A DNA stretch of 39,264 nucleotides, taken from positions 1 through 39,264 of the forward strand of contig DFBI01000047.1 in NCBI GenBank assembly GCA_002367335.1, in the 5' to 3' direction. Under the pieces are notes generated by a model. The model was not told the origin of the DNA. It made no database searches and saw only the letters and a program-made list of their open reading frames with translations. Of the stretch, positions 2,239 to 39,264 are shown one piece after another (position 1 is the first letter of the stretch; each line of letters opens with the position of its first letter). The stretch comes from Syntrophaceae bacterium UBA3084. GTDB taxonomy: Bacteria; Desulfobacterota; Syntrophia; Syntrophales; UBA6807. The position numbers and the translations under genes are program-made.

Positions 2239-2427
2239 CTGTCTTCCGTCCTCCGTCTTCCGCCCTCCGTCTTCCGTCCTCCGTCCTCTGTCTTCCGTCC
2301 TCCGTCCTCCGTCTTCTGTCTTCCGTCCTCCGTCTTCCGCCCTCCGTCTTCCGTCCTCCGTCCTCTGTCTTCCGTCCTCCGTCCTCCGTCTTCTGTATTC
2401 CGTCCTCCGTCCTCCGTCCTCCGCTCT
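2239..2427. repeat. Tandem heptanucleotide array, 27 units CYGTCYT (CCGTCCT, CCGTCTT, CTGTCTT, CCGCCCT)
   Basis: Strict 7-nt register starting 3 nt upstream of the four-helix-bundle ATG. Units 1-11 (2239-2315) are repeated perfectly as units 12-22 (2316-2392). The last unit contributes the stop codon of the CapD-like gene. Confidence 0.95.
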
Positions 2428-3503
2428 CACTCCGGCCAATACCTTTCAGCCGGATGCTCTTCAACCCGTTGCTGCAATAAGTTGTTTTCTCTCAAAAAGA
2501 GTTTCAATTCTGCCTTGCTCATGAAAGGTCCTTCTTCTGAAACATACGGCCGATTAACCGTTGAAGATAAGATATCCGGATAATCATAATCTATGTTTCG
2601 GTAAATCCCGCGAAAAGCAGGAAGGACAACAAAGTACTTTTTCAGCTCCATGGCCCGTCGCGTCTCTTCCTGGCTCATCAATTCCTCATAGAGTTTTTCC
2701 CCTGATTTCCTCCCCATCCCCACAACCTCAATATCTTCCGGTTTATGACCATAGATCGGAGCCAACTCTTCAACCATTACCATGGCCAGATCCGCAATCC
2801 TGATTATCGGCATCTTGGTAACAAAGACTTCACCACCGCGTGCCAGCTCAGCAGAATTGATCACCAGCTCCACCGCCTGCTCAATACTCATGATAAAGCG
2901 TGTCATATCCCTTTCCGTCAGCGTAAGCGGCCCACCTTTTTTTATCTGCTGTTGAAAAATAGGAATAACCGAGCCGCGCGATCCGAGAACATTGCCAAAA
3001 CGGGTTGATATAAAGATCAGCCCTTCACCTTTAAAGTTTGCATTGGCAGCGGTCATAAGTCGTTCGCCCATTAATTTTGATGTACCCATTACATTGGTCG
3101 GATTAACAGCCTTGTCCGAGCTTGTAAATATGACTCTCTCCACATTGTTTTCACAGGCGGCATAGATAATATTCTGAACACCGACAATATTGGTCCGCAC
3201 CGCCTCAAAAGGGGAACGCTCACACAGGATAACATGCTTAAACGCCGCGCAATGAAAAACAATGTCTACCCCTTTCATTTTGCGGCAAAGCTTATCCCTG
3301 TCGCGCACGTCAGCAAGAAAAAAACTGGCCTGCTTGTAATCTGAAAACCTCTGTTCCAAAAAGAAAAGTTCACTCTCATTATTATCAAGAGCTATCAATT
3401 CGGCTGGCTGACAATGCATCAATAACTGGTGCACCAGCTCTCGTCCCACAGTACCACATGCCCCTGTAACAAGTATCCGCTTGTCAGCAAAAAAATCTCT
3501 CAT
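2427..3503 (-). CDS. CapD/PseB/FlaA1-type polysaccharide biosynthesis protein (UDP-GlcNAc 4,6-dehydratase family, short soluble form)
   Basis: 358 aa with a TGACGTVG Rossmann motif and family-typical blocks (VFHCAAFKHV, FTSSDKAVNPTNVMGTSK, RFGNVLGSRGSVIP). Confidence 0.8.
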   Translation of the reverse strand: MRDFFADKRILVTGACGTVGRELVHQLLMHCQPAELIALDNNESELFFLEQRFSDYKQASFFLADVRDRDKLCRKMKGVDIVFHCAAFKHVILCERSPFEAVRTNIVGVQNIIYAACENNVERVIFTSSDKAVNPTNVMGTSKLMGERLMTAANANFKGEGLIFISTRFGNVLGSRGSVIPIFQQQIKKGGPLTLTERDMTRFIMSIEQAVELVINSAELARGGEVFVTKMPIIRIADLAMVMVEELAPIYGHKPEDIEVVGMGRKSGEKLYEELMSQEETRRAMELKKYFVVLPAFRGIYRNIDYDYPDILSSTVNRPYVSEEGPFMSKAELKLFLRENNLLQQRVEEHPAERYWPE

Positions 3504-4868: not shown

Positions 4869-5111
4869 CTACCTACTGCTTGCATTCAAAATCGTTATTC
4901 CTACAATTTTATCATCATCTGTTCTAATTAACACATCGTCATCCATCTCAACGGTCTTCTTTGCTCTTTGTGGCCTTCGAAAACTCAGATACAGAACATC
5001 CGCCTCTTTATCGTAGTCAACCCAAATATGCTTGACCGAAAGCCTTGCCAATTCTGATGATAGCCCTAAGCAAGAATCGATCATTTCCTTATTTACTGAC
5101 TGCATCGCCAT
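4869..5111 (-). CDS. DUF2283-family small protein (putative antitoxin-like partner)
   Basis: 80 aa with the core VDYDKEADVLYLSF typical of DUF2283. Overlaps the upstream small ORF by 19 nt. Confidence 0.6.
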   Translation of the reverse strand: MAMQSVNKEMIDSCLGLSSELARLSVKHIWVDYDKEADVLYLSFRRPQRAKKTVEMDDDVLIRTDDDKIVGITILNASSR

Positions 5112-5395
5112 ATTGGCACCCCCTTTGGTTTTTTATCCAGAAAATAGGCTGTGATGACAAAGCCATCTTTTTTTGAAATTTCTCTGTAAACGACTACCAG
5201 CCATTTATCTCTCCCTATATTCCTCGTCGCCTTCAGACTACCCTTATTGCCTCTGATTATGAATTCCGGGTTTTCAACCACTTCCATGACTTCGAAATAG
5301 TAGCTGGCTAAGTCATCGTGGTTTTCAGTAATATGGAACCATCTTTCATACGTTAAACGTATCGGTACACCATTAACAGAATAGGCTATCTCCAT
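5093..5395 (-). CDS. DUF4258-like small protein (putative toxin-like partner)
   Basis: About 100 aa from ATG 5395 (the track starts at TTG 5413). The pattern H.TE.H...ENP.F......VVVY......VITAYF resembles DUF4258 proteins, which commonly pair with DUF2283. Confidence 0.45.
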   Translation of the reverse strand: MEIAYSVNGVPIRLTYERWFHITENHDDLASYYFEVMEVVENPEFIIRGNKGSLKATRNIGRDKWLVVVYREISKKDGFVITAYFLDKKPKGVPIWRCSQ

Positions 5396-5444
5396 ATTAA
5401 GTTCTCTTCCCAACTTCTCATCTCATCCTCTTCTTTTCCCACCT

Positions 5445-5499
5445 TCCCTGTCTCGTTGAATTCCGCTTTGCGGACGTCCGAAGGGCTATTCAACTGGGA
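5445..5499. repeat. Nested hairpin element, copy 1
   Basis: Outer stem TCTC-GTTGAAT (5451-5461) pairs with ATTCAAC-t-GGGA (5488-5499). Inner hairpins are TCCGC-ttt-GCGGA (5462-5474) and GTCC-gaa-GGGC (5476-5486). Confidence 0.7.
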
Positions 5500-5603: not shown

Positions 5604-5652
5604 CCCGTTGAATTGCTCCGCCAGGAGCACCCCGAAGGGGATTCAACCGGGG
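5604..5652. repeat. Nested hairpin element, copy 2
   Basis: Outer stem CCC-GTTGAAT (5604-5613) pairs with ATTCAAC-c-GGG(G) (5641-5652). Inner hairpins are TGCTCC-gcca-GGAGCA (5614-5629) and CCCC-gaa-GGGG (5630-5640). Confidence 0.75.
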
Positions 5653-5677: not shown

Positions 5678-5722
5678 CCCCGTGAAATTCACGAAGTGAC
5701 AGCGTAGTGCATTTCACCGGGG
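5678..5722. repeat. Nested hairpin element, copy 3
   Basis: Outer stem CCCC-GTGAAAT (5678-5688) pairs with ATTTCAC-c-GGGG (5711-5722), with two compensatory changes relative to copies 1 and 2. Inner hairpin is TCAC-gaa-GTGA (5689-5699). Confidence 0.75.
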
Positions 5723-33596: not shown

Positions 33597-34187
33597 TGGG
33601 GGAGCATTCTTGATAATCTTTGCCCCGCAACCAATTATAGAATTTTCACCGATTTCAATATATTCCCGTGTTACCGCATTGCTGCCGAAAAAAGTCCCTC
33701 GACCAACCTTAACCCCACCGTTGATTACAGCGTCTGTGGCGATGTGGCAATGATCTTCGATGACGGCATCATGTTCGATAAGTGCCCTGGTATTGATGAT
33801 GCAGTTTTCCCCGATTTTTGCTCCAGCATTCACCAGTGCATAGTGCATGACGATAGTTCCCTCTTCAAGCCGGGCATGTCTCGAAACATAAGCCAGCGGC
33901 GATATAATTACAGGCAGCCTGCCGCCAAGTTTTTTTACTTTCTCGAAAAGCCTTATCCGCTTTTCCGGACTCTTGATCTGACCCAGAGTAACTAGGCAAT
34001 TCTTATGTTCCTTGACCAGATCAGGCAGATCATCATCTGTGGCGATGATTTCATAGCCCAGAATCTTCTGATGCAGCTTTTCCGGCACATCCACAATGCC
34101 CGCGATCTGAAACGTTCCAGCCTGTTCGATTACGTCAACGCAGGATTTACAGTGACCGCCTCCTCCTATGAGAATTATTTTATGCAT
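33573..34187 (-). CDS. NeuD/PglD/LegH-family sugar N-acetyltransferase (left-handed beta-helix)
   Basis: 204 aa with a KIILIGGGGHCKS N-terminal Rossmann-like domain and hexapeptide repeats in the C-terminal half. Confidence 0.85.
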   Translation of the reverse strand: MHKIILIGGGGHCKSCVDVIEQAGTFQIAGIVDVPEKLHQKILGYEIIATDDDLPDLVKEHKNCLVTLGQIKSPEKRIRLFEKVKKLGGRLPVIISPLAYVSRHARLEEGTIVMHYALVNAGAKIGENCIINTRALIEHDAVIEDHCHIATDAVINGGVKVGRGTFFGSNAVTREYIEIGENSIIGCGAKIIKNAPPNSSIFHL

Positions 34188-35811
34188 TTTGAAAAAATTT
34201 AATAATATAGTCTATTTCAGGCTCTTTTAAATTTACAGAACATGGAATATTAATAGTTTTGTCAATCAAATCATTTGCTTTTTCGATTTGATAAAATTGA
34301 CAACTCCTATAGGGCTTTTGCATATGGTTAAGGTACCATACAGGGCGTGTCTGAATATTGTTTTCAGTAAGGTAGGTCATTAACTGTTCTCTGTCTTTTC
34401 CGTATGCGCTTTTATCAATTTGCAATGCGTACATCCAATGATTGTTTTCCGCATATTCCGGAGTTTTCGCAATATGTAATCCTGAAATTTCATCAATTTC
34501 GTTTTTATAACGTCGATAGTTCCGCTTCTTTGTCTTTAAATATCCTGGAAGTTGTTCCAACTGTGCAACACCCATTGCCGCCTGAATATTTGTTAATCTG
34601 TAATTATAACCAATCTCATTATGAATATAACGAATTCCATCATCTTTGGCCTGTGTGGTCAGATATCTCGCTTTTTCCGCCAGCGCCGGATCATCGGTTA
34701 AGATCATCCCGCCGCCGCCGGTAGTGATTAACTTGTTCCCATTAAAGGAAAGACAGCCAAGTGTCCCCACAGTGCCGCAATGCCTGCCCTTATGTTTCCC
34801 GCTGATATACCGCGTGCCGAGACTTTCTGTGGCATCTTCAATGATTTTGATATTACGCTTGAGGCAGATATCGGTTAGTTCATCAAGGAATACGGCATTG
34901 CCAAATACATGGACAGGAATAATTGCGGAAATTCGCCTGCCGGTTAAACGGTTGTACGTGGATCCACTTCGAAATTCCGTCTCCTTTTCCAGAAAGCGGA
35001 TTACCTTGCCGGCATCAATGTTATAATATCGATCACAGTCCATAAACACCGGATCTGCCGATAAATATATAACAACATTTATCGGCGAGATAAAGGTTAA
35101 GGTCGGCACAATCACTTCATCCCCGGGCTGCACACCCGCCAGATTTAAGGCAATATGCAGAGCGGCAGTGCCGTTCATGCAGGCCACGGCATGCTTTGCG
35201 CCGGTGTATTCAGCAATCCTTTGCTCAAAGAGGTCCACATACTTTCCCACAGAGGAGACCCACTCGGTATCAAGACACTCCTTGATGTACTTCCATTCGT
35301 TGCCTTGAATAGATGGAACTGAAAGTGGAATAACTTTGCTATATTCTTTCTTTTCCGCTCCTTTGTTTTCTTCGCCGGAAAAAGGGTTAATTACATCAAA
35401 AAAATCGTATTTTTTAAAATCCTTGTCGTTTGCGGTAATAAATTTCTTGATATTGTTATGCTTACATAGATTTGCAATTAAATGATCATAGATTTCATAT
35501 TTTCGGACGTTATGATTTGCGGCACTTTCAAAAGTAACCTCCAAAATATCTATATTTGTTTCCAATACCTCTATTTTTTTATTAAGTAAGATATTCTTAA
35601 TAATTCCATAGGATTTATCCGGTGAAATTGGGTCGCTAACCACCTTATCATTAGTAATGATCTGATAAAATTCAATCAAACTTATATCAGCAATAGCAAA
35701 TCCATCTGCCCGGATCAGGTCTTCAAGGACTGCTTCTGCCTTATCATTAAACTGTGACTGGGCATTAAAAGCATATATAAGGATATTGCTATCTATACAA
35801 ATATCCATCAT
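34180..35811 (-). CDS. PIN-domain (VapC-like) protein fused in frame to a DegT/DnrJ/EryC1-type (LegC-like) sugar aminotransferase
   Basis: Residues 1-144 have the PIN acidic set (IDSNILIY, LIEFY, EIYDHL, ITANDKDF). From about residue 159 the sequence matches the aminotransferase family: IPLSVPSIQGNEWKYIKECLDTEWVSSVG, NGTAALHIAL. There is no stop codon and no ATG/GTG/TTG in the 15-residue linker. Confidence 0.8.
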   Translation of the reverse strand: MMDICIDSNILIYAFNAQSQFNDKAEAVLEDLIRADGFAIADISLIEFYQIITNDKVVSDPISPDKSYGIIKNILLNKKIEVLETNIDILEVTFESAANHNVRKYEIYDHLIANLCKHNNIKKFITANDKDFKKYDFFDVINPFSGEENKGAEKKEYSKVIPLSVPSIQGNEWKYIKECLDTEWVSSVGKYVDLFEQRIAEYTGAKHAVACMNGTAALHIALNLAGVQPGDEVIVPTLTFISPINVVIYLSADPVFMDCDRYYNIDAGKVIRFLEKETEFRSGSTYNRLTGRRISAIIPVHVFGNAVFLDELTDICLKRNIKIIEDATESLGTRYISGKHKGRHCGTVGTLGCLSFNGNKLITTGGGGMILTDDPALAEKARYLTTQAKDDGIRYIHNEIGYNYRLTNIQAAMGVAQLEQLPGYLKTKKRNYRRYKNEIDEISGLHIAKTPEYAENNHWMYALQIDKSAYGKDREQLMTYLTENNIQTRPVWYLNHMQKPYRSCQFYQIEKANDLIDKTINIPCSVNLKEPEIDYIIKFFQNA

Positions 35812-36031
35812 CGTCTCTTCTATGCAGAAATTCTCTTGTTAAATTATCCTCTTTTAATTTTATTTTTGGTCCTTTTCTCAACAGCTCAATAAAATCTTTT
35901 GCGTCTTTAGTCTTATCTTCCTTTTCAATATCATAAATAATTTTTAGTTGCTTACCTGTTAATTTTTTCAGTAAATCAGGACTAATATCCAAAACTCCAT
36001 TGGATTTCATTTTGGTAATTATATGCTGCAT
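35789..36031 (-). CDS. Small protein, putative VapB-type antitoxin
   Basis: 80 aa, immediately upstream of and overlapping the PIN ORF. The N-terminal SNGVLDISPDLLKKL resembles an AbrB/SpoVT-like swapped-hairpin segment. The assignment rests mainly on position. Confidence 0.45.
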   Translation of the reverse strand: MQHIITKMKSNGVLDISPDLLKKLTGKQLKIIYDIEKEDKTKDAKDFIELLRKGPKIKLKEDNLTREFLHRRDDDGYLYR

Positions 36032-37684: not shown

Positions 37685-37905
37685 CTCAAGACGCAAAGTT
37701 CGCAAAGAAAAGATATATTTTTTCTGCTGAGAGGGCAGAAAAGAATACGCTTACGCAAAAACCATAGCATAATCATTCAAAGCACATATATACCGACGAA
37801 TAGAATTGTATAGTTGCCATAAGGCTTGTAGCTTTTGTTTTCCTTTCTTTCAAAGGAAAACAAAAAGGAAGTAAACTTGGCGTTCTTTGCGTCTTTGCGG
37901 TAAAA
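37685..37905. repeat. REP/MITE-like unit: imperfect inverted repeats carrying AAGACGCAAAG (37688-37698) and CTTTGCGTCTT (37885-37895) around a 14-bp hairpin (37833-37865)
   Basis: The 11-nt cores are perfect reverse complements, with partial matches in their flanks. Each arm is internally reiterated (CGCAAAG x2; TCTTTGCG x2). The central stem is TTTTGTTTTCCTTT / AAAGGAAAACAAAA. Confidence 0.5.
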
Positions 37906-38214
37906 TAGATGCCAGGAATCATCAGCCTTGTCACTCTGCGGTGTCTTGCACCAAGTTAATCCTCGACTTAAACCTGGCGAAAGGAAGAAACTGCCCCACG
38001 GGTTCGAGACCCAAGGCAGGGACCTTCTCTTCCGCTAGAATGGCTGGTTTTACCGATAAAAGAAAGCTTTTCATTTTTTTAACTTTGAACATACAAGGCA
38101 AAATCACCACTGCCCAAAATTCTTTCATCTCCCTTTTCCCATTCTTCCTTCTTTCTCCCCAATAGATTCCTTTTGTTCCCGCCCGCGCTTCGGACCAATC
38201 CACCACCCGATAAA

Positions 38215-38249
38215 GCTCAAAGCTGAATGCTGAATGCTCAAAGCAACTA
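38215..38249. repeat. Heptad tract GCTCAAA GCTGAAT GCTGAAT GCTCAAA GCAACTA
   Basis: Read directly. The last unit contains the stop codon of the four-helix-bundle pseudogene. Confidence 0.8.
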
Positions 38250-38450
38250 AGATGAAGAGATCGAATTTATGAGACCCTTTATCATGGACACTATTTCTTT
38301 ACCATGCATTTCGAGTTGAGAATAACGATCATCAGATATCCATTTCTTTCTCCGGAAAATTTCGAGCAAGGTCATTGTTTCATATAATGACCCCCTTGAT
38401 ATGTACAAATATTGCACAAACTCCTTTTTTGAAAAACGACCTTGCCCTCT
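38247..38450 (-). pseudogene. Four-helix-bundle (23S rRNA IVS protein family) gene, C-terminal half
   Basis: The minus frame reads RGQGRFSKKEFVQYLYISRGSLYETMTLLEIFRRKKWISDDRYSQLEMHGKEIVSMIKGLINSISSS*, matching the family from the (NIAE)GQGR motif onward. It starts directly after the GIY-YIG stop codon. Confidence 0.75.
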
Positions 38451-38705
38451 TTACCCGGTTAAATAAGATTTGAGTCGCTTTTTTAGAAACATTCTGCCAT
38501 GATATGTCTTTAGATATTTTTCACGTCTTGTTGCATCTTCTCTACTAAGACAGGCTTCATAATAGATCAAATTGAAAGGTGCTCTTTTTTTAGTAGAATC
38601 CACAAGGCCCTTGTTATGTCGCTCAAATCTTAACTTGAGTTCTTTTGTGAATCCAATATAGAATTTTCCATCCTTTTGGCTTTGCAAGACATAAGTGTAA
38701 TACAT
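38451..38705 (-). CDS. Small GIY-YIG nuclease-family protein (UPF0213/YhbQ-like)
   Basis: 84 aa from ATG 38705. Shows YYTYVLQSQKDGKFYIGFT (GIY...YIG) plus the R...H.N and E..L motif positions. Confidence 0.85.
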   Translation of the reverse strand: MYYTYVLQSQKDGKFYIGFTKELKLRFERHNKGLVDSTKKRAPFNLIYYEACLSREDATRREKYLKTYHGRMFLKKRLKSYLTG

Positions 38706-38717
38706 CACATATTCAAG

Positions 38718-38878
38718 CTATTTAACTGGGCAGGTATTCATAGATACGCTGGTGGAACTCGCTTCTATTTGCTCCAAGACGCTGTATCTGGGGGACGGAG
38801 TTAGTTTAATAGTTTAATATGTAACGTCCATCATTTTCTTTTATATTTAATACGTTGAAATAATTCATACCGTTCCAT
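38718..38878 (-). pseudogene. Four-helix-bundle gene, decayed N-terminal half
   Basis: One frame reads ...KLTPSPRYSVLEQIEASSTSVSMNT, then leaves homology (CPVK*). Compare FSLTDQIRRSSRSIGANLAEA in the intact copy. Upstream there is an 8-bp tandem duplication (AGTTTAAT x2, 38803-38818) that shifts the frame, and an in-frame TGA. Confidence 0.6.
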
Positions 38879-39136
38879 TTATCTCAATGCTCTTCTGATT
38901 TTCTTCGGATCTTGACGGAGATCCAGAACTCTCTTAACTAAGATAAGATCCTGATTTTCCATGGTGTAGTAGATGGCATACGGGAATCTTTTTGAAAGTA
39001 ACCGATGATAACCAGCGACTTTCCGATGAATTCCGCTATACAGAACCAACGAGTCAATGTCAGAAAACAATGAATCAAAGAAGTAATCCCCTACCCCCAC
39101 ACCTCTATAATAACGAAATCCAGATGATTTTATCAA
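38879..39136 (-). CDS. RelE/ParE-family toxin, probably N-terminally shortened
   Basis: 85 aa with the C-terminal pattern FPYAIYYTMENQDLILVKRVLDLRQDP typical of ParE-type toxins. No antitoxin-like ORF is visible upstream in the remaining 128 nt. Confidence 0.6.
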   Translation of the reverse strand: MIKSSGFRYYRGVGVGDYFFDSLFSDIDSLVLYSGIHRKVAGYHRLLSKRFPYAIYYTMENQDLILVKRVLDLRQDPKKIRRALR

Positions 39137-39264
39137 TCGGCTGATTATGTTAAACAGCCCAATATCTATAACCTTGCTAAATAATTGGATCTTTCATTAT
39201 GGTATAGTATAAATTAGCTTTCACCAAAATAATTAATACTATATCATAATAGAGCATTTTTTGT

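Follow-up and report, generated by a model that had tools for sequence, protein, structure and literature searches.

This analysis concerns a stretch of 39,264 nucleotides from Syntrophaceae bacterium UBA3084 (contig DFBI01000047.1), referred to below as the window, in which a four-helix-bundle (FHB) gene on the minus strand is interrupted by a short insert that encodes a GIY-YIG nuclease. The insert carries an intact open reading frame (ORF) of 84 codons with 27 nt on its 5' side and none on its 3' side, and lies on the margin of a polysaccharide-biosynthesis cluster. A GC content of 42%, relatives labelled Deltaproteobacteria and the occurrence of this contig in JGI sample 3300001749 point to a Desulfobacterota genome as the probable source. 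The insert is one copy of a discrete cassette that is widespread over many bacterial phyla and is apparently undescribed. The parts of the locus are the following:

38247-38791, minus strand: FHB remnant, insert and FHB C-terminal half, in the order of the reading direction
38735..38791, minus strand: remnant of the FHB N-terminal half, 19 codons (…RYSVLEQIEASSTSVSMN + A; …PRYSVLEQIEASSTSVSMN); the local alignment to the intact gene of locus L082 begins here
38450..38734, minus strand: whole cassette, 285 bp, CCTG-CCCAGTTAAATA … TATTTAACCGGG-TAAA, delimited by the conservation profile and the fold
38451..38705, minus strand: GIY-YIG ORF, 84 codons, intact (ATG at 38705, stop TAA at 38453-38451), PF01541
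38247..38450, minus strand: FHB C-terminal half (RGQGRFSKKEF…SSS, stop; RGQGRFSKKEFVQYLYISRGSLYE…SSS, stop) with a 1-nt deletion near its start, PF05635 and TIGR02436
38211..38246, minus strand: simple-repeat flank on the 3' side of the FHB gene (GCTTTGAGC/ATTCAGC units), shared with L082 and L083 past the stop codon

The upstream piece of the FHB gene (…RYSVLEQIEASSTSVSMNT) stops at 38733/38735, and the insertion lies at the N-I-A-E-G motif. In profile searches the C-terminal half matches PF05635 over positions 49-106 (E=1.6e-12) and TIGR02436 over positions 45-108, and the two halves joined give an unbroken PF05635 match over positions 25-106 (E=1e-16). An initial annotation of this DNA, made from the sequence alone, had read an intact minus-strand GIY-YIG ORF between two halves of an FHB gene that are contiguous in intact family members. 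The intact ORF, the C-terminal half and the contiguity of the flanks in the family profile are all confirmed by these searches, but the N-terminal half is far shorter than that reading supposed. Homology on the left side begins at ~38791 and leaves 19 codons, and PF05635 positions 1-24, ~37 codons (MTFAYENLEVWNKAVDF…), are absent, which makes the gene incomplete even apart from the insert. The loss of the N-terminus probably happened around 38792-39136; this interval holds a spacer (38792-38878) and a weak ParE-toxin-like ORF (38879-39136, 85 aa, E=0.014) that abuts the truncated remnant. An 8-bp tandem duplication, ATTAAACT, is present at 38803-38818, between the ParE-like ORF and the remnant. 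The initial annotation attributed the decay of the host gene to this duplication and an in-frame stop. The duplication is real, but neither it nor the reading 'MERYELFQRIKYKRK, stop' / "MERYELF…" has detectable FHB homology, and this account of the decay does not stand.

Uninterrupted alleles, which the initial annotation had named as a check, were found with the joined halves as query: proteins P0121-P0125, of 120 aa, share 87-88% identity and have the sequence …SSTSVSMNIAEGKGRFSKKEF…. In DNA, ~97% identity to the intact FHB gene in L082 extends over the C-terminal half and on into the 3' flank, and the empty site in L082 is ATGAATA^TCGC^AGAGGGAAAAGG (a caret marks a junction); the reconstructed empty FHB site is ATGAATATCGCAGAGGGAAAAGG. 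The filled site in the window reads ATGAATA, then the cassette CCTGCCC…GGGTAA, then AGAGGG-CAAGG, with a 1-nt deletion directly 3' of the GIY-YIG stop (GGGAAAAGG to GGG-CAAGG). It had also been remarked that this stop is followed in frame by the second half of the FHB gene. This is true of the window copy, but it is a product of the deletion, and in L212, which has an identical junction, the C-terminal half is in a different frame from the stop. The truncated N-terminal half, the deletion in the C-terminal half and a degenerate Shine-Dalgarno sequence in the cassette indicate that the insertion event is old. The window copy is thus an old insertion in an FHB pseudogene and is possibly no longer active.

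The FHB gene itself resembles an inserted cassette, as inverted simple-repeat arrays of the GCTGAAA/GCTCAAA type lie on either side of its ORF (window 38211-38246; L082 ~185-300 and 668-720; L083 ~2950-3000 and 3364-3410). Intact FHB copies have, on the 5' side of the gene, an inverted counterpart of the 3' array. Arrays and gene are kept together between unrelated metagenomes at ~97% nucleotide identity, and in L083-L088 the FHB gene separates a znuC-like from a znuB-like gene in an ABC transporter operon. We infer that the insertion in the window destroyed an FHB gene that was itself an inserted cassette.

Nuclease, boundaries and insertion sites of the cassette

The GIY-YIG protein matches PF01541 at 58.2 bits against a cut-off of 22.6 (E=1e-15). 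Relatives were collected from species-representative genomes (212 found, of which the best 80 were examined); 79 loci besides the window were used, and 73 intact copies among them make up the cassette alignment A1. All family-invariant residues are present in the window copy (Y5, D12, Y16, G18, R26, H30, S37, P43, R61, E62, …), and the catalytic residues Y5, Y16, R26, H30 and E62 are invariant across the 73 copies, align to 1zg2 and 1ywl, and belong to an ORF under strong purifying selection. The nearest solved structures are these two UPF0213 proteins (E~1e-6), in agreement with the UPF0213-type assignment in the initial annotation; SLX1, a structure-specific nuclease, is matched weakly. The protein ends at residue 84, and profile searches found no other domain and no DNA-binding region, whether NUMOD, zinc-finger or helix-turn-helix (HTH) module. 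The homing endonuclease model TIGR01453 scores 21.4 bits against a cut-off of 56 and is not reached, and a PHROG homing endonuclease family matches weakly. No PADLOC defence model matched either the GIY-YIG or the FHB protein, and no relative was found in IMG/VR with single-sequence patterns. The family comprises 3860 homologue clusters; nearly all of the proteins in the 120 listed have a length of exactly 84 aa and an identity of 76-86%, and most come from short contigs. In an exact-sequence lookup the GTG-start form had no record, and the ATG-start protein was recorded only on the window's own JGI contig.

The limits of the cassette are sharp. Across 78 loci conservation starts 4 nt before CCC and is zero directly after TRAA, which gives a cassette length of ~283-297 bp. 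The sequence TTYRCCCNGTTAAATA (cassette arms CCCNGTTAAAT) lies 23-38 nt upstream of the start codon in every copy, and every ORF ends …TAT TTA ACN GGG TRA A, the reverse complement of TTYRCCCNGTTAAATA; in the window the exact arm sequence occurs at these two places only. No target-site duplication of 2-9 bp was found at any boundary offset, and no second conserved gene accompanies the cassette in the examined loci. Among the best 80 of 212 relatives, proteins of 69-82% identity come from Desulfobacterales and other "Deltaproteobacteria", many lineages of the candidate phyla radiation (CPR)/Patescibacteria, Brocadiaceae and Thermotogaceae, with further members in Aminicenantes, Elusimicrobia, Bdellovibrionales, Bacteroidales and one Bathyarchaeia metagenome-assembled genome (MAG). 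Copies across phyla including Planctomycetes, Thermotogae and Desulfobacterota share 70-86% protein identity, and several MAGs hold two or three copies. In open-access full text, searched for the arm sequence as well, no prokaryotic GIY-YIG element that has inverted repeats or mini-derivatives was found described; the one relevant remark found there concerns insertions in CPR rRNA genes (PMC11270868).

The 79 GTDB loci are distributed over these sites:

FHB gene, after N(I/Y) of the NIAEG/GANYxEA motif: 19 of 79
FHB gene, three other positions: 4 of 79
GxxExxY/PDDEXK_3 gene, after E-x-V-Y: 7 of 79
GxxExxY/PDDEXK_3 gene, after P-[IV]-Y: 3 of 79
GxxExxY/PDDEXK_3 gene, elsewhere: 1 of 79
ORF6N gene, after V-N-I: 3 of 79
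MazE/AbrB-like small CPR genes, inside or just upstream: 7 of 79
IS200-like Y1 transposase gene, just before the HUH motif (L032, cassette 126-404): 1 of 79
Another GIY-YIG gene, UPF0213-type (L057): 1 of 79
IS5-like (DUF772) transposase genes, antisense, in two different MAGs (L009, L022, cassette ~1976-2256): 2 of 79
Intergenic DNA: the remaining loci

FHB genes are the most frequent landing site (23/79), followed by GxxExxY/PDDEXK_3 genes (11/79). Other FHB genes interrupted at the same codon had been proposed as a check on the initial annotation, and these exist: 23 of 27 FHB insertions (the GTDB FHB loci plus L209-L212) share the left junction AAY A^CYYGCCC. The special association with FHB genes that it had suggested does not hold, as the cassette is also found in at least eight other gene families and in intergenic DNA. 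The insertions in L032, L009, L022 and L057 are in genes that are themselves mobile or selfish, and in L053 an intergenic cassette ends 6 nt upstream of a tRNA gene. The right junction of FHB insertions is variable (TAAA^CAGAGG, ^GAGGGA, ^AAGGGA, ^AGGGG). The four closest metagenome copies (83-86% amino acid identity) are all at the same FHB site in three FHB subfamilies, which by a by-eye estimate from the flank sequences are <40% identical to each other. Near-identical cassettes in such diverged genes point to repeated independent hits at one site, and GIY-YIG lineages cluster by insertion site only in part.

Apart from the antisense cases in IS5-like genes, the cassette is in the sense orientation in all of the ~40 in-gene cases. 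The host frame reads …(Y/C)PVK and ends at a TAG within the left arm, only a few bases ahead of the cassette's Shine-Dalgarno sequence and ATG. By this arrangement the cassette appears to lack a promoter and to be coupled in translation to the gene that it interrupts. The left-arm TAG can be lost: in its absence, protein P0027 (146 aa, on a 576-bp ENA contig) continues from an FHB N-terminal half across the cassette leader (…ANTCPVKQLELIV…) into the GIY-YIG ORF, and read-through fusions of this kind do arise. At GxxExxY genes (site GAAAAAGTTTACGAGAAT) removal of CCC…TRAA restores the host frame exactly, for example EKVY^ENGMAHRL, and the joined proteins match PF13366 contiguously. The targets resemble the left end of the element, with ATY-GC in the N-I-A of FHB and ORF6N genes, GTT-TAC in the V-Y of GxxExxY genes and ATT-YA in CPR intergenic DNA.

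A three-way-junction fold and elements without an ORF

In the 73 intact copies the two cassette ends pair over 15-16 bp to form a helix P1, and the leader directly after the left arm pairs with codons 22-25 to form a helix P2. A third helix, P3, lies within the coding sequence. In the window the strands are as follows:

38719..38734, minus strand: P1 left arm (5' strand), inverted repeat I5; holds the TAG at 38721-38719 that ends the host N-half frame (…NTCPVK, stop)
38711..38718, minus strand: P2 5' strand (GCTTGAAT), from covariation
38633..38640, minus strand: P2 3' strand within codons 22-25 (ACTCAAGT), from covariation and fold
38622..38632, minus strand: P3 5' strand (TAAGATTTGAG, codons 25-28), perfect 11-nt inverted repeat I4
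38464..38474, minus strand: P3 3' strand (CTCAAATCTTA, codons 78-81), inverted repeat I4 and frozen synonymous sites
38450..38465, minus strand: P1 right arm (3' strand), encodes Y-L-T-G, the stop and one A; frozen synonymous sites and pairing

P1, P2 and P3 abut with almost no unpaired bases, which makes a three-way junction with the halves of the ORF in two hairpin domains. P1 shows 91% pairing and 5 compensated pairs (its core is 95% Watson-Crick), P2 has 7 of 11 pairs changed on both sides, and P3 is 96.6% paired with 4 compensated pairs. Over the whole of A1, 91.6% of cells are paired versus 26-52% when the partner strand is slid by 1-3 columns, 16 of 36 pairs are changed on both sides, and covariation is 0.203 versus 0.114 after shuffling (0/500 as high). 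The P2 strands are GCTTGAGG/CCTCAAGC in most non-CPR copies, where GCTTGAGG carries the Shine-Dalgarno sequence that is degenerate in the window, and AATTTTAAATT/AATTTAAAATT in CPR copies. Independent compensated variants are found in all three helices (AGTTTGAG/CTCAAACT, TGTTTGAGG/CCTCAAACA, ACCTTGAGG/CCTCAAGGT, AATTTCAAAT/ATTTGAAATT, TACGATTTGAG/CTCAAATCGTA and GTGAAAT/ATTTCAC). Synonymous sites are frozen only at codons 26-28 (AGA TTT GAG) and 78-84 (CTC AAA TCT TAT TTA ACN GGG). For the window copy, both the minimum-free-energy and the centroid fold give the three-way junction closed by the end-to-end helix.

On the coding strand, G·T mismatches are about as frequent as A·C mismatches (13:9 in the P1 core and 7:10 in P3), which argues for pairing in DNA over folding of the sense RNA. 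The outer four pairs of P1 are asymmetric, with TTTA opposite TGAA and TTCA opposite TAAA (A1 columns 3-6 and 301-304; mini-elements L089-L208). Perfectly complementary outer ends are rare, 6 TTTA/TAAA and 0 TTCA/TGAA versus 40 asymmetric; each element thus has one TTTACCC and one TTCACCC end. A non-Watson-Crick pair, T·G or C·A, is conserved third from the base of P1, the ORF faces either way relative to the TTTA/TTCA asymmetry, and FHB-type copies have C[CT][TC]G at the left end instead. Rfam gave no match at E≤10 in 37800-39264, nor around the mini-palindromes of the window.

The same ends also occur on short elements that lack the ORF. A metagenome scan with the pattern CCCTGTTAAAT-N5-35-ATTTAACNGGG matched at least 120 contigs, versus about ten expected by chance on a rough estimate. 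Among the matches listed, 124 mini-elements were folded; 66 consist of P1 plus two hairpins with a fully paired junction and 36 of P1 plus one hairpin. The loops of these are more structured than shuffled ones (mean z=-2.7), their hairpins vary freely in sequence while pairing is kept, and they share the set of flanking 4-mers with the full cassettes. Mini-elements are found near full cassettes in 10 GTDB loci (11 copies). No FHB gene was found within 330 nt of mini-elements in 120 metagenome loci, as judged with a rather narrow hidden Markov model, and those of the rRNA-bearing loci L143, L178 and L195 are outside the rRNA genes. The window has three ORF-less mini-palindromes of 45-48 bp (CCCNGTGAAAT or CCCNGTTGAAT … complement), with the related arms GTGAAAT and GTTGAAT:

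5678-5722, minus strand: mini-palindrome
5604-5651, minus strand: mini-palindrome
5452-5498, minus strand: mini-palindrome

Arm variants of these (GTGAAAT) recur in the full cassettes L056, L066, L072 and L075, compensated on both sides. The mini-palindromes are embedded in purine-rich simple repeats (GGAGGAC, CAGAGAT and CGAACGT units) between small ORFs, half-sites are present at 207-217 and 233-243, and one loop (…GCTCCTGGCGGAGCA) resembles the mini-element loops of the Parcubacteria loci L066 and L075.

The window holds other small modules. A second FHB gene, uninterrupted and of the SIGANLAEA type, lies at 1832-2464 on the minus strand (PF05635, E=4e-32); its likely ATG is at 2236, and the frame, which stays open for 75 codons further upstream, overlaps a Polysacc_synt_2 gene (2427-3503) at that gene's 3' end. 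The polysaccharide cluster also contains a toxin-antitoxin-like pair, two overlapping minus-strand ORFs at 4869-5413, of which one (80 aa) is DUF2283 and the other (106 aa) DUF4258/PBECR2-like. This pair, the FHB genes and the palindromes indicate that the cluster is peppered with small selfish modules. A 543-aa ORF at 34180-35811 on the minus strand has a PIN domain at its N-terminus (residues 4-137) and, after it, a complete DegT/DnrJ aminotransferase (167-539), and an overlapping 80-aa ORF at 35789-36031 that precedes the 543-aa ORF has no family match. Possibly a VapBC-like pair has here become fused to a sugar aminotransferase gene or has run into it.

Proposed mechanism and alternative explanations

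Taken together, the data favor a compact, promoterless, self-mobilising cassette that is defined by its structure and driven by an SLX1/UPF0213-like nuclease; the mechanism is deduced from sequence comparison, and we put the probability of this reading at about 0.55. The element would fold as a single strand or as an extruded cruciform, bringing both ends together at the base of P1, where the encoded minimal nuclease may cut at or near the CCCNG/CNGGG boxes. CNNNG is the cleavage motif of the I-TevI nuclease domain, and the CCCNG of the cassette arm, in which N is free, has that form. The nuclease would also cut end-like targets, TTYA or TTG followed by C, such as the ATY-GC in the N-I-A codons of FHB genes. 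The cassette could then be moved or copied in, with host repair leaving the fixed left and slightly variable right junction, and its expression would come from read-through transcription and translational coupling to the host gene.

Several points weigh against this self-mobilising cassette. No filled and empty pair near 100% identity and no excised form were found. An 84-aa GIY-YIG domain is not known to carry out strand transfer or ligation, and insertion would therefore rely on host functions or repair copying. The chemistry does not look uniform either, since excision leaves the frame off by 1-2 nt at FHB sites and leaves a stop (junction codon TAG or TAA) at ORF6N sites. The fold energy of the whole window cassette is ordinary (z=-0.67), with only the three closing helices supported, and the covariation of P2 is partly a single CPR/non-CPR split and thus reflects few independent events. 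Finally, the enrichment in dispensable, selfish genes could partly mirror the survival of insertions and not targeting.

The alternative that survives best, although we consider it unlikely, is that the mobile unit is the palindromic three-way-junction module, mobilised by an enzyme whose gene lies elsewhere (a tyrosine recombinase/Xer, an HUH enzyme or replication slippage at hairpins) and that the GIY-YIG ORF is a passenger with a role in repair, defence or addiction. Mini-elements that have the same arms and no ORF are common, as this would predict, and a GIY-YIG domain alone cannot rejoin DNA. The arms contain TGTTAAAT, which appears to match 8 nt of the XerD arm of dif, and they fit the degenerate GTTRRRY/RYYYAAC core motifs of integron attC. 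However, the order of these motifs is opposite to that in attC (GTTAAAT … ORF … ATTTAAC, with no second core site after the cassette), and the conserved second arm outside the element that an att- or dif-type site needs is missing; an integron attC cassette and a Xer/dif-like site, for which the 8-nt resemblance is all there is, were rejected on these grounds. Nor does a second conserved gene travel with the cassette in the examined loci, and its presence in very distant phyla would demand a universally present helper enzyme. P2 and P3 reach into a coding sequence that is under strong purifying selection with invariant catalytic residues, which would be odd for mere cargo, and the lack of a PADLOC match speaks against a defence passenger and led us to set aside a defence system as such.

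A classical free-standing homing endonuclease gene is less probable again. It would cut intact FHB alleles at the NIAEG codons (ATGAATATCGCAGAGGG-type targets) and be copied in by homologous double-strand-break repair, with the helices serving only to control expression. The GIY-YIG domain, the weak PHROG match, the sense orientation and promoterless design, the partial clustering of nuclease lineages by site and the single left junction that 23/27 FHB insertions share, in the family's most conserved motif, all fit this idea, and a fixed left with a variable right junction suits microhomology repair. The initial annotation had favored a homing-type or otherwise site-specific mobile nuclease cassette; a mobile cassette at the most conserved motif of a multi-copy family is what we find, but the homing part is hard to reconcile with the absence of a DNA-binding domain, a TIGR01453 score far below its cut-off, and the paired ends and mini-derivatives. 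The near-identical cassettes in FHB subfamilies that are <40% identical (by eye) would lack the flanking homology that homing needs, and the many unrelated contexts include intergenic DNA and antisense positions in IS5-like genes. Moreover, mini-elements with the same arms lie at unrelated sites with no FHB gene within 330 nt, and the arms are part of the element down to their outermost 4 nt.

A role at the RNA level, in which the helices form in RNA and regulate how a toxic nuclease is translated (Shine-Dalgarno sequence in P2) or make up an RNase III-type processing site like that of a 23S rRNA intervening sequence, mobility being incidental or ancient, is very improbable: the Shine-Dalgarno sequence in P2, the host stop codon in P1, the tolerance of G·U pairs and the GIY-YIG and 23S_rRNA_IVP ORFs of non-intron insertions in CPR rRNA genes (PMC11270868) would agree with it, whereas G·T is not in excess over A·C on the sense strand, the ORF takes either orientation relative to the asymmetric TTTA/TTCA ends, mini-elements keep the fold with nothing to regulate and those checked lie outside rRNA genes, no Rfam family matches, and the host gene would not be rescued by RNA that is cut but not rejoined.

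Other candidates were rejected outright. A group I intron or known RNA family does not agree with the lack of an Rfam match around the cassette or with the 27 nt 5' and none 3' of the ORF, and RNA splicing does not agree with a host frame that is restored at GxxExxY genes only. An origin in phages was dropped, as IMG/VR holds no relative by single-sequence patterns. The window copy lies in a protein-coding gene and the mini-elements of L143, L178 and L195 are outside rRNA genes, which disposes of an rRNA intervening sequence. An insertion sequence with terminal inverted repeats (TIRs) or a MITE (miniature inverted-repeat transposable element) would account for the inverted repeats, but there is no target-site duplication and the only ORF is the GIY-YIG one. 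An element of the IS200/IS605 group, or a repetitive extragenic palindrome with its associated tyrosine transposase (REP/RAYT), is excluded by the absence of Y1_Tnp from the cassette; the Y1_Tnp-like gene of L032 is an insertion target and not part of the element.

Beyond the window, we tentatively propose, at a little under even odds, that the cassette belongs to a previously unrecognised class of prokaryotic mobile elements and, at ~285 bp, is the smallest of all that are autonomous, and that in it an 84-aa GIY-YIG protein acts as a structure-specific 'transposase' on a T-shaped (three-way-junction) fold of its own ends and coding sequence. Its non-autonomous derivatives would then be the 40-65-bp mini-elements that CPR bacteria, Desulfobacterota and further phyla carry, and the same class may cover the non-intron GIY-YIG insertions in rRNA genes. 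If the nuclease does drive its own spread, it would be a sixth catalytic type in prokaryotic transposition beside DDE, HUH, serine, tyrosine and Cas1 enzymes, and the element would set a new lower size limit for autonomy. It would also explain the thousands of 84-aa "GIY-YIG nuclease family proteins" on short metagenome contigs and the frequent splitting of small "IVS-type" (intervening-sequence-type) genes (four-helix-bundle, GxxExxY, ORF6N), and it would give an origin for a widespread family of structured palindromic repeats. A coding sequence bound to fold with its flanks into a three-way DNA junction would be an unusual case of overlapping codes, and a nuclease this minimal, recognising a DNA structure together with a short sequence, could find practical uses.

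Comparison with known systems

Free-standing GIY-YIG homing genes include Seg of phage T4 and those of the I-TevI type, and mobE splits nrdA of Aeromonas phage Aeh1. Like these, the cassette is a selfish GIY-YIG gene inside a conserved host motif that splits its host into two ORFs, and it is promoterless, in the sense orientation and at a site that recurs in different genomes. Unlike them, its protein is a bare 84-aa catalytic domain without NUMOD, zinc-finger or HTH modules; it has 15-16-bp paired ends, a three-way-junction fold and ORF-less derivatives; and it occurs in many unrelated genes and intergenic DNA and was not found in phage contigs (IMG/VR). With UPF0213/YhbQ (1zg2, 1ywl) and SLX1 it shares a minimal catalytic domain with the conserved Y…Y…R…H…E, although the 84-aa family is shorter than UPF0213 and has spread horizontally across phyla. 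No mobility and no bounding inverted repeats are known for UPF0213 genes.

As in IS200/IS605 and REP/RAYT systems, there is no target duplication, the DNA forms hairpins, short palindromic non-autonomous relatives exist and the gene is flanked by palindrome halves. Insertion beside a specific tetranucleotide (TTYA in the cassette, TTAC in IS608) is a further likeness to IS200/IS605. The cassette enzyme, however, is GIY-YIG and not HUH/Y1, the cassette is 2-5 times smaller, and its ends pair with each other, whereas in those systems each end forms its own hairpin. MITEs and TIR insertion sequences share the terminal inverted repeats, the multiple copies and the ORF-less miniatures, but the cassette differs from them in having no target duplication and no DDE or other known transposase, and in internal helices that covary, which indicates that structure and not only a protein-binding sequence is conserved.

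In CPR rRNA genes, non-intron insertions encode GIY-YIG or 23S_rRNA_IVP ORFs, and the GIY-YIG inserts were judged to be outside a homing context (PMC11270868). The cassette resembles these and the 23S rRNA intervening sequences in having a small ORF enclosed by an end-to-end stem, and the same two protein families are involved; its host is instead a protein-coding gene, with no rRNA context in the loci checked. The T-shaped termini of parvoviruses and adeno-associated virus (AAV), which are the ends of linear single-stranded DNA viruses and are nicked by an HUH Rep protein, have no sequence or evolutionary link to the cassette. By analogy only, they share with it a long palindromic stem that encloses two short hairpins with no unpaired bases at the junction, and it is proposed that the cassette structure, like theirs, would be recognised and nicked by a nuclease that the element itself encodes.

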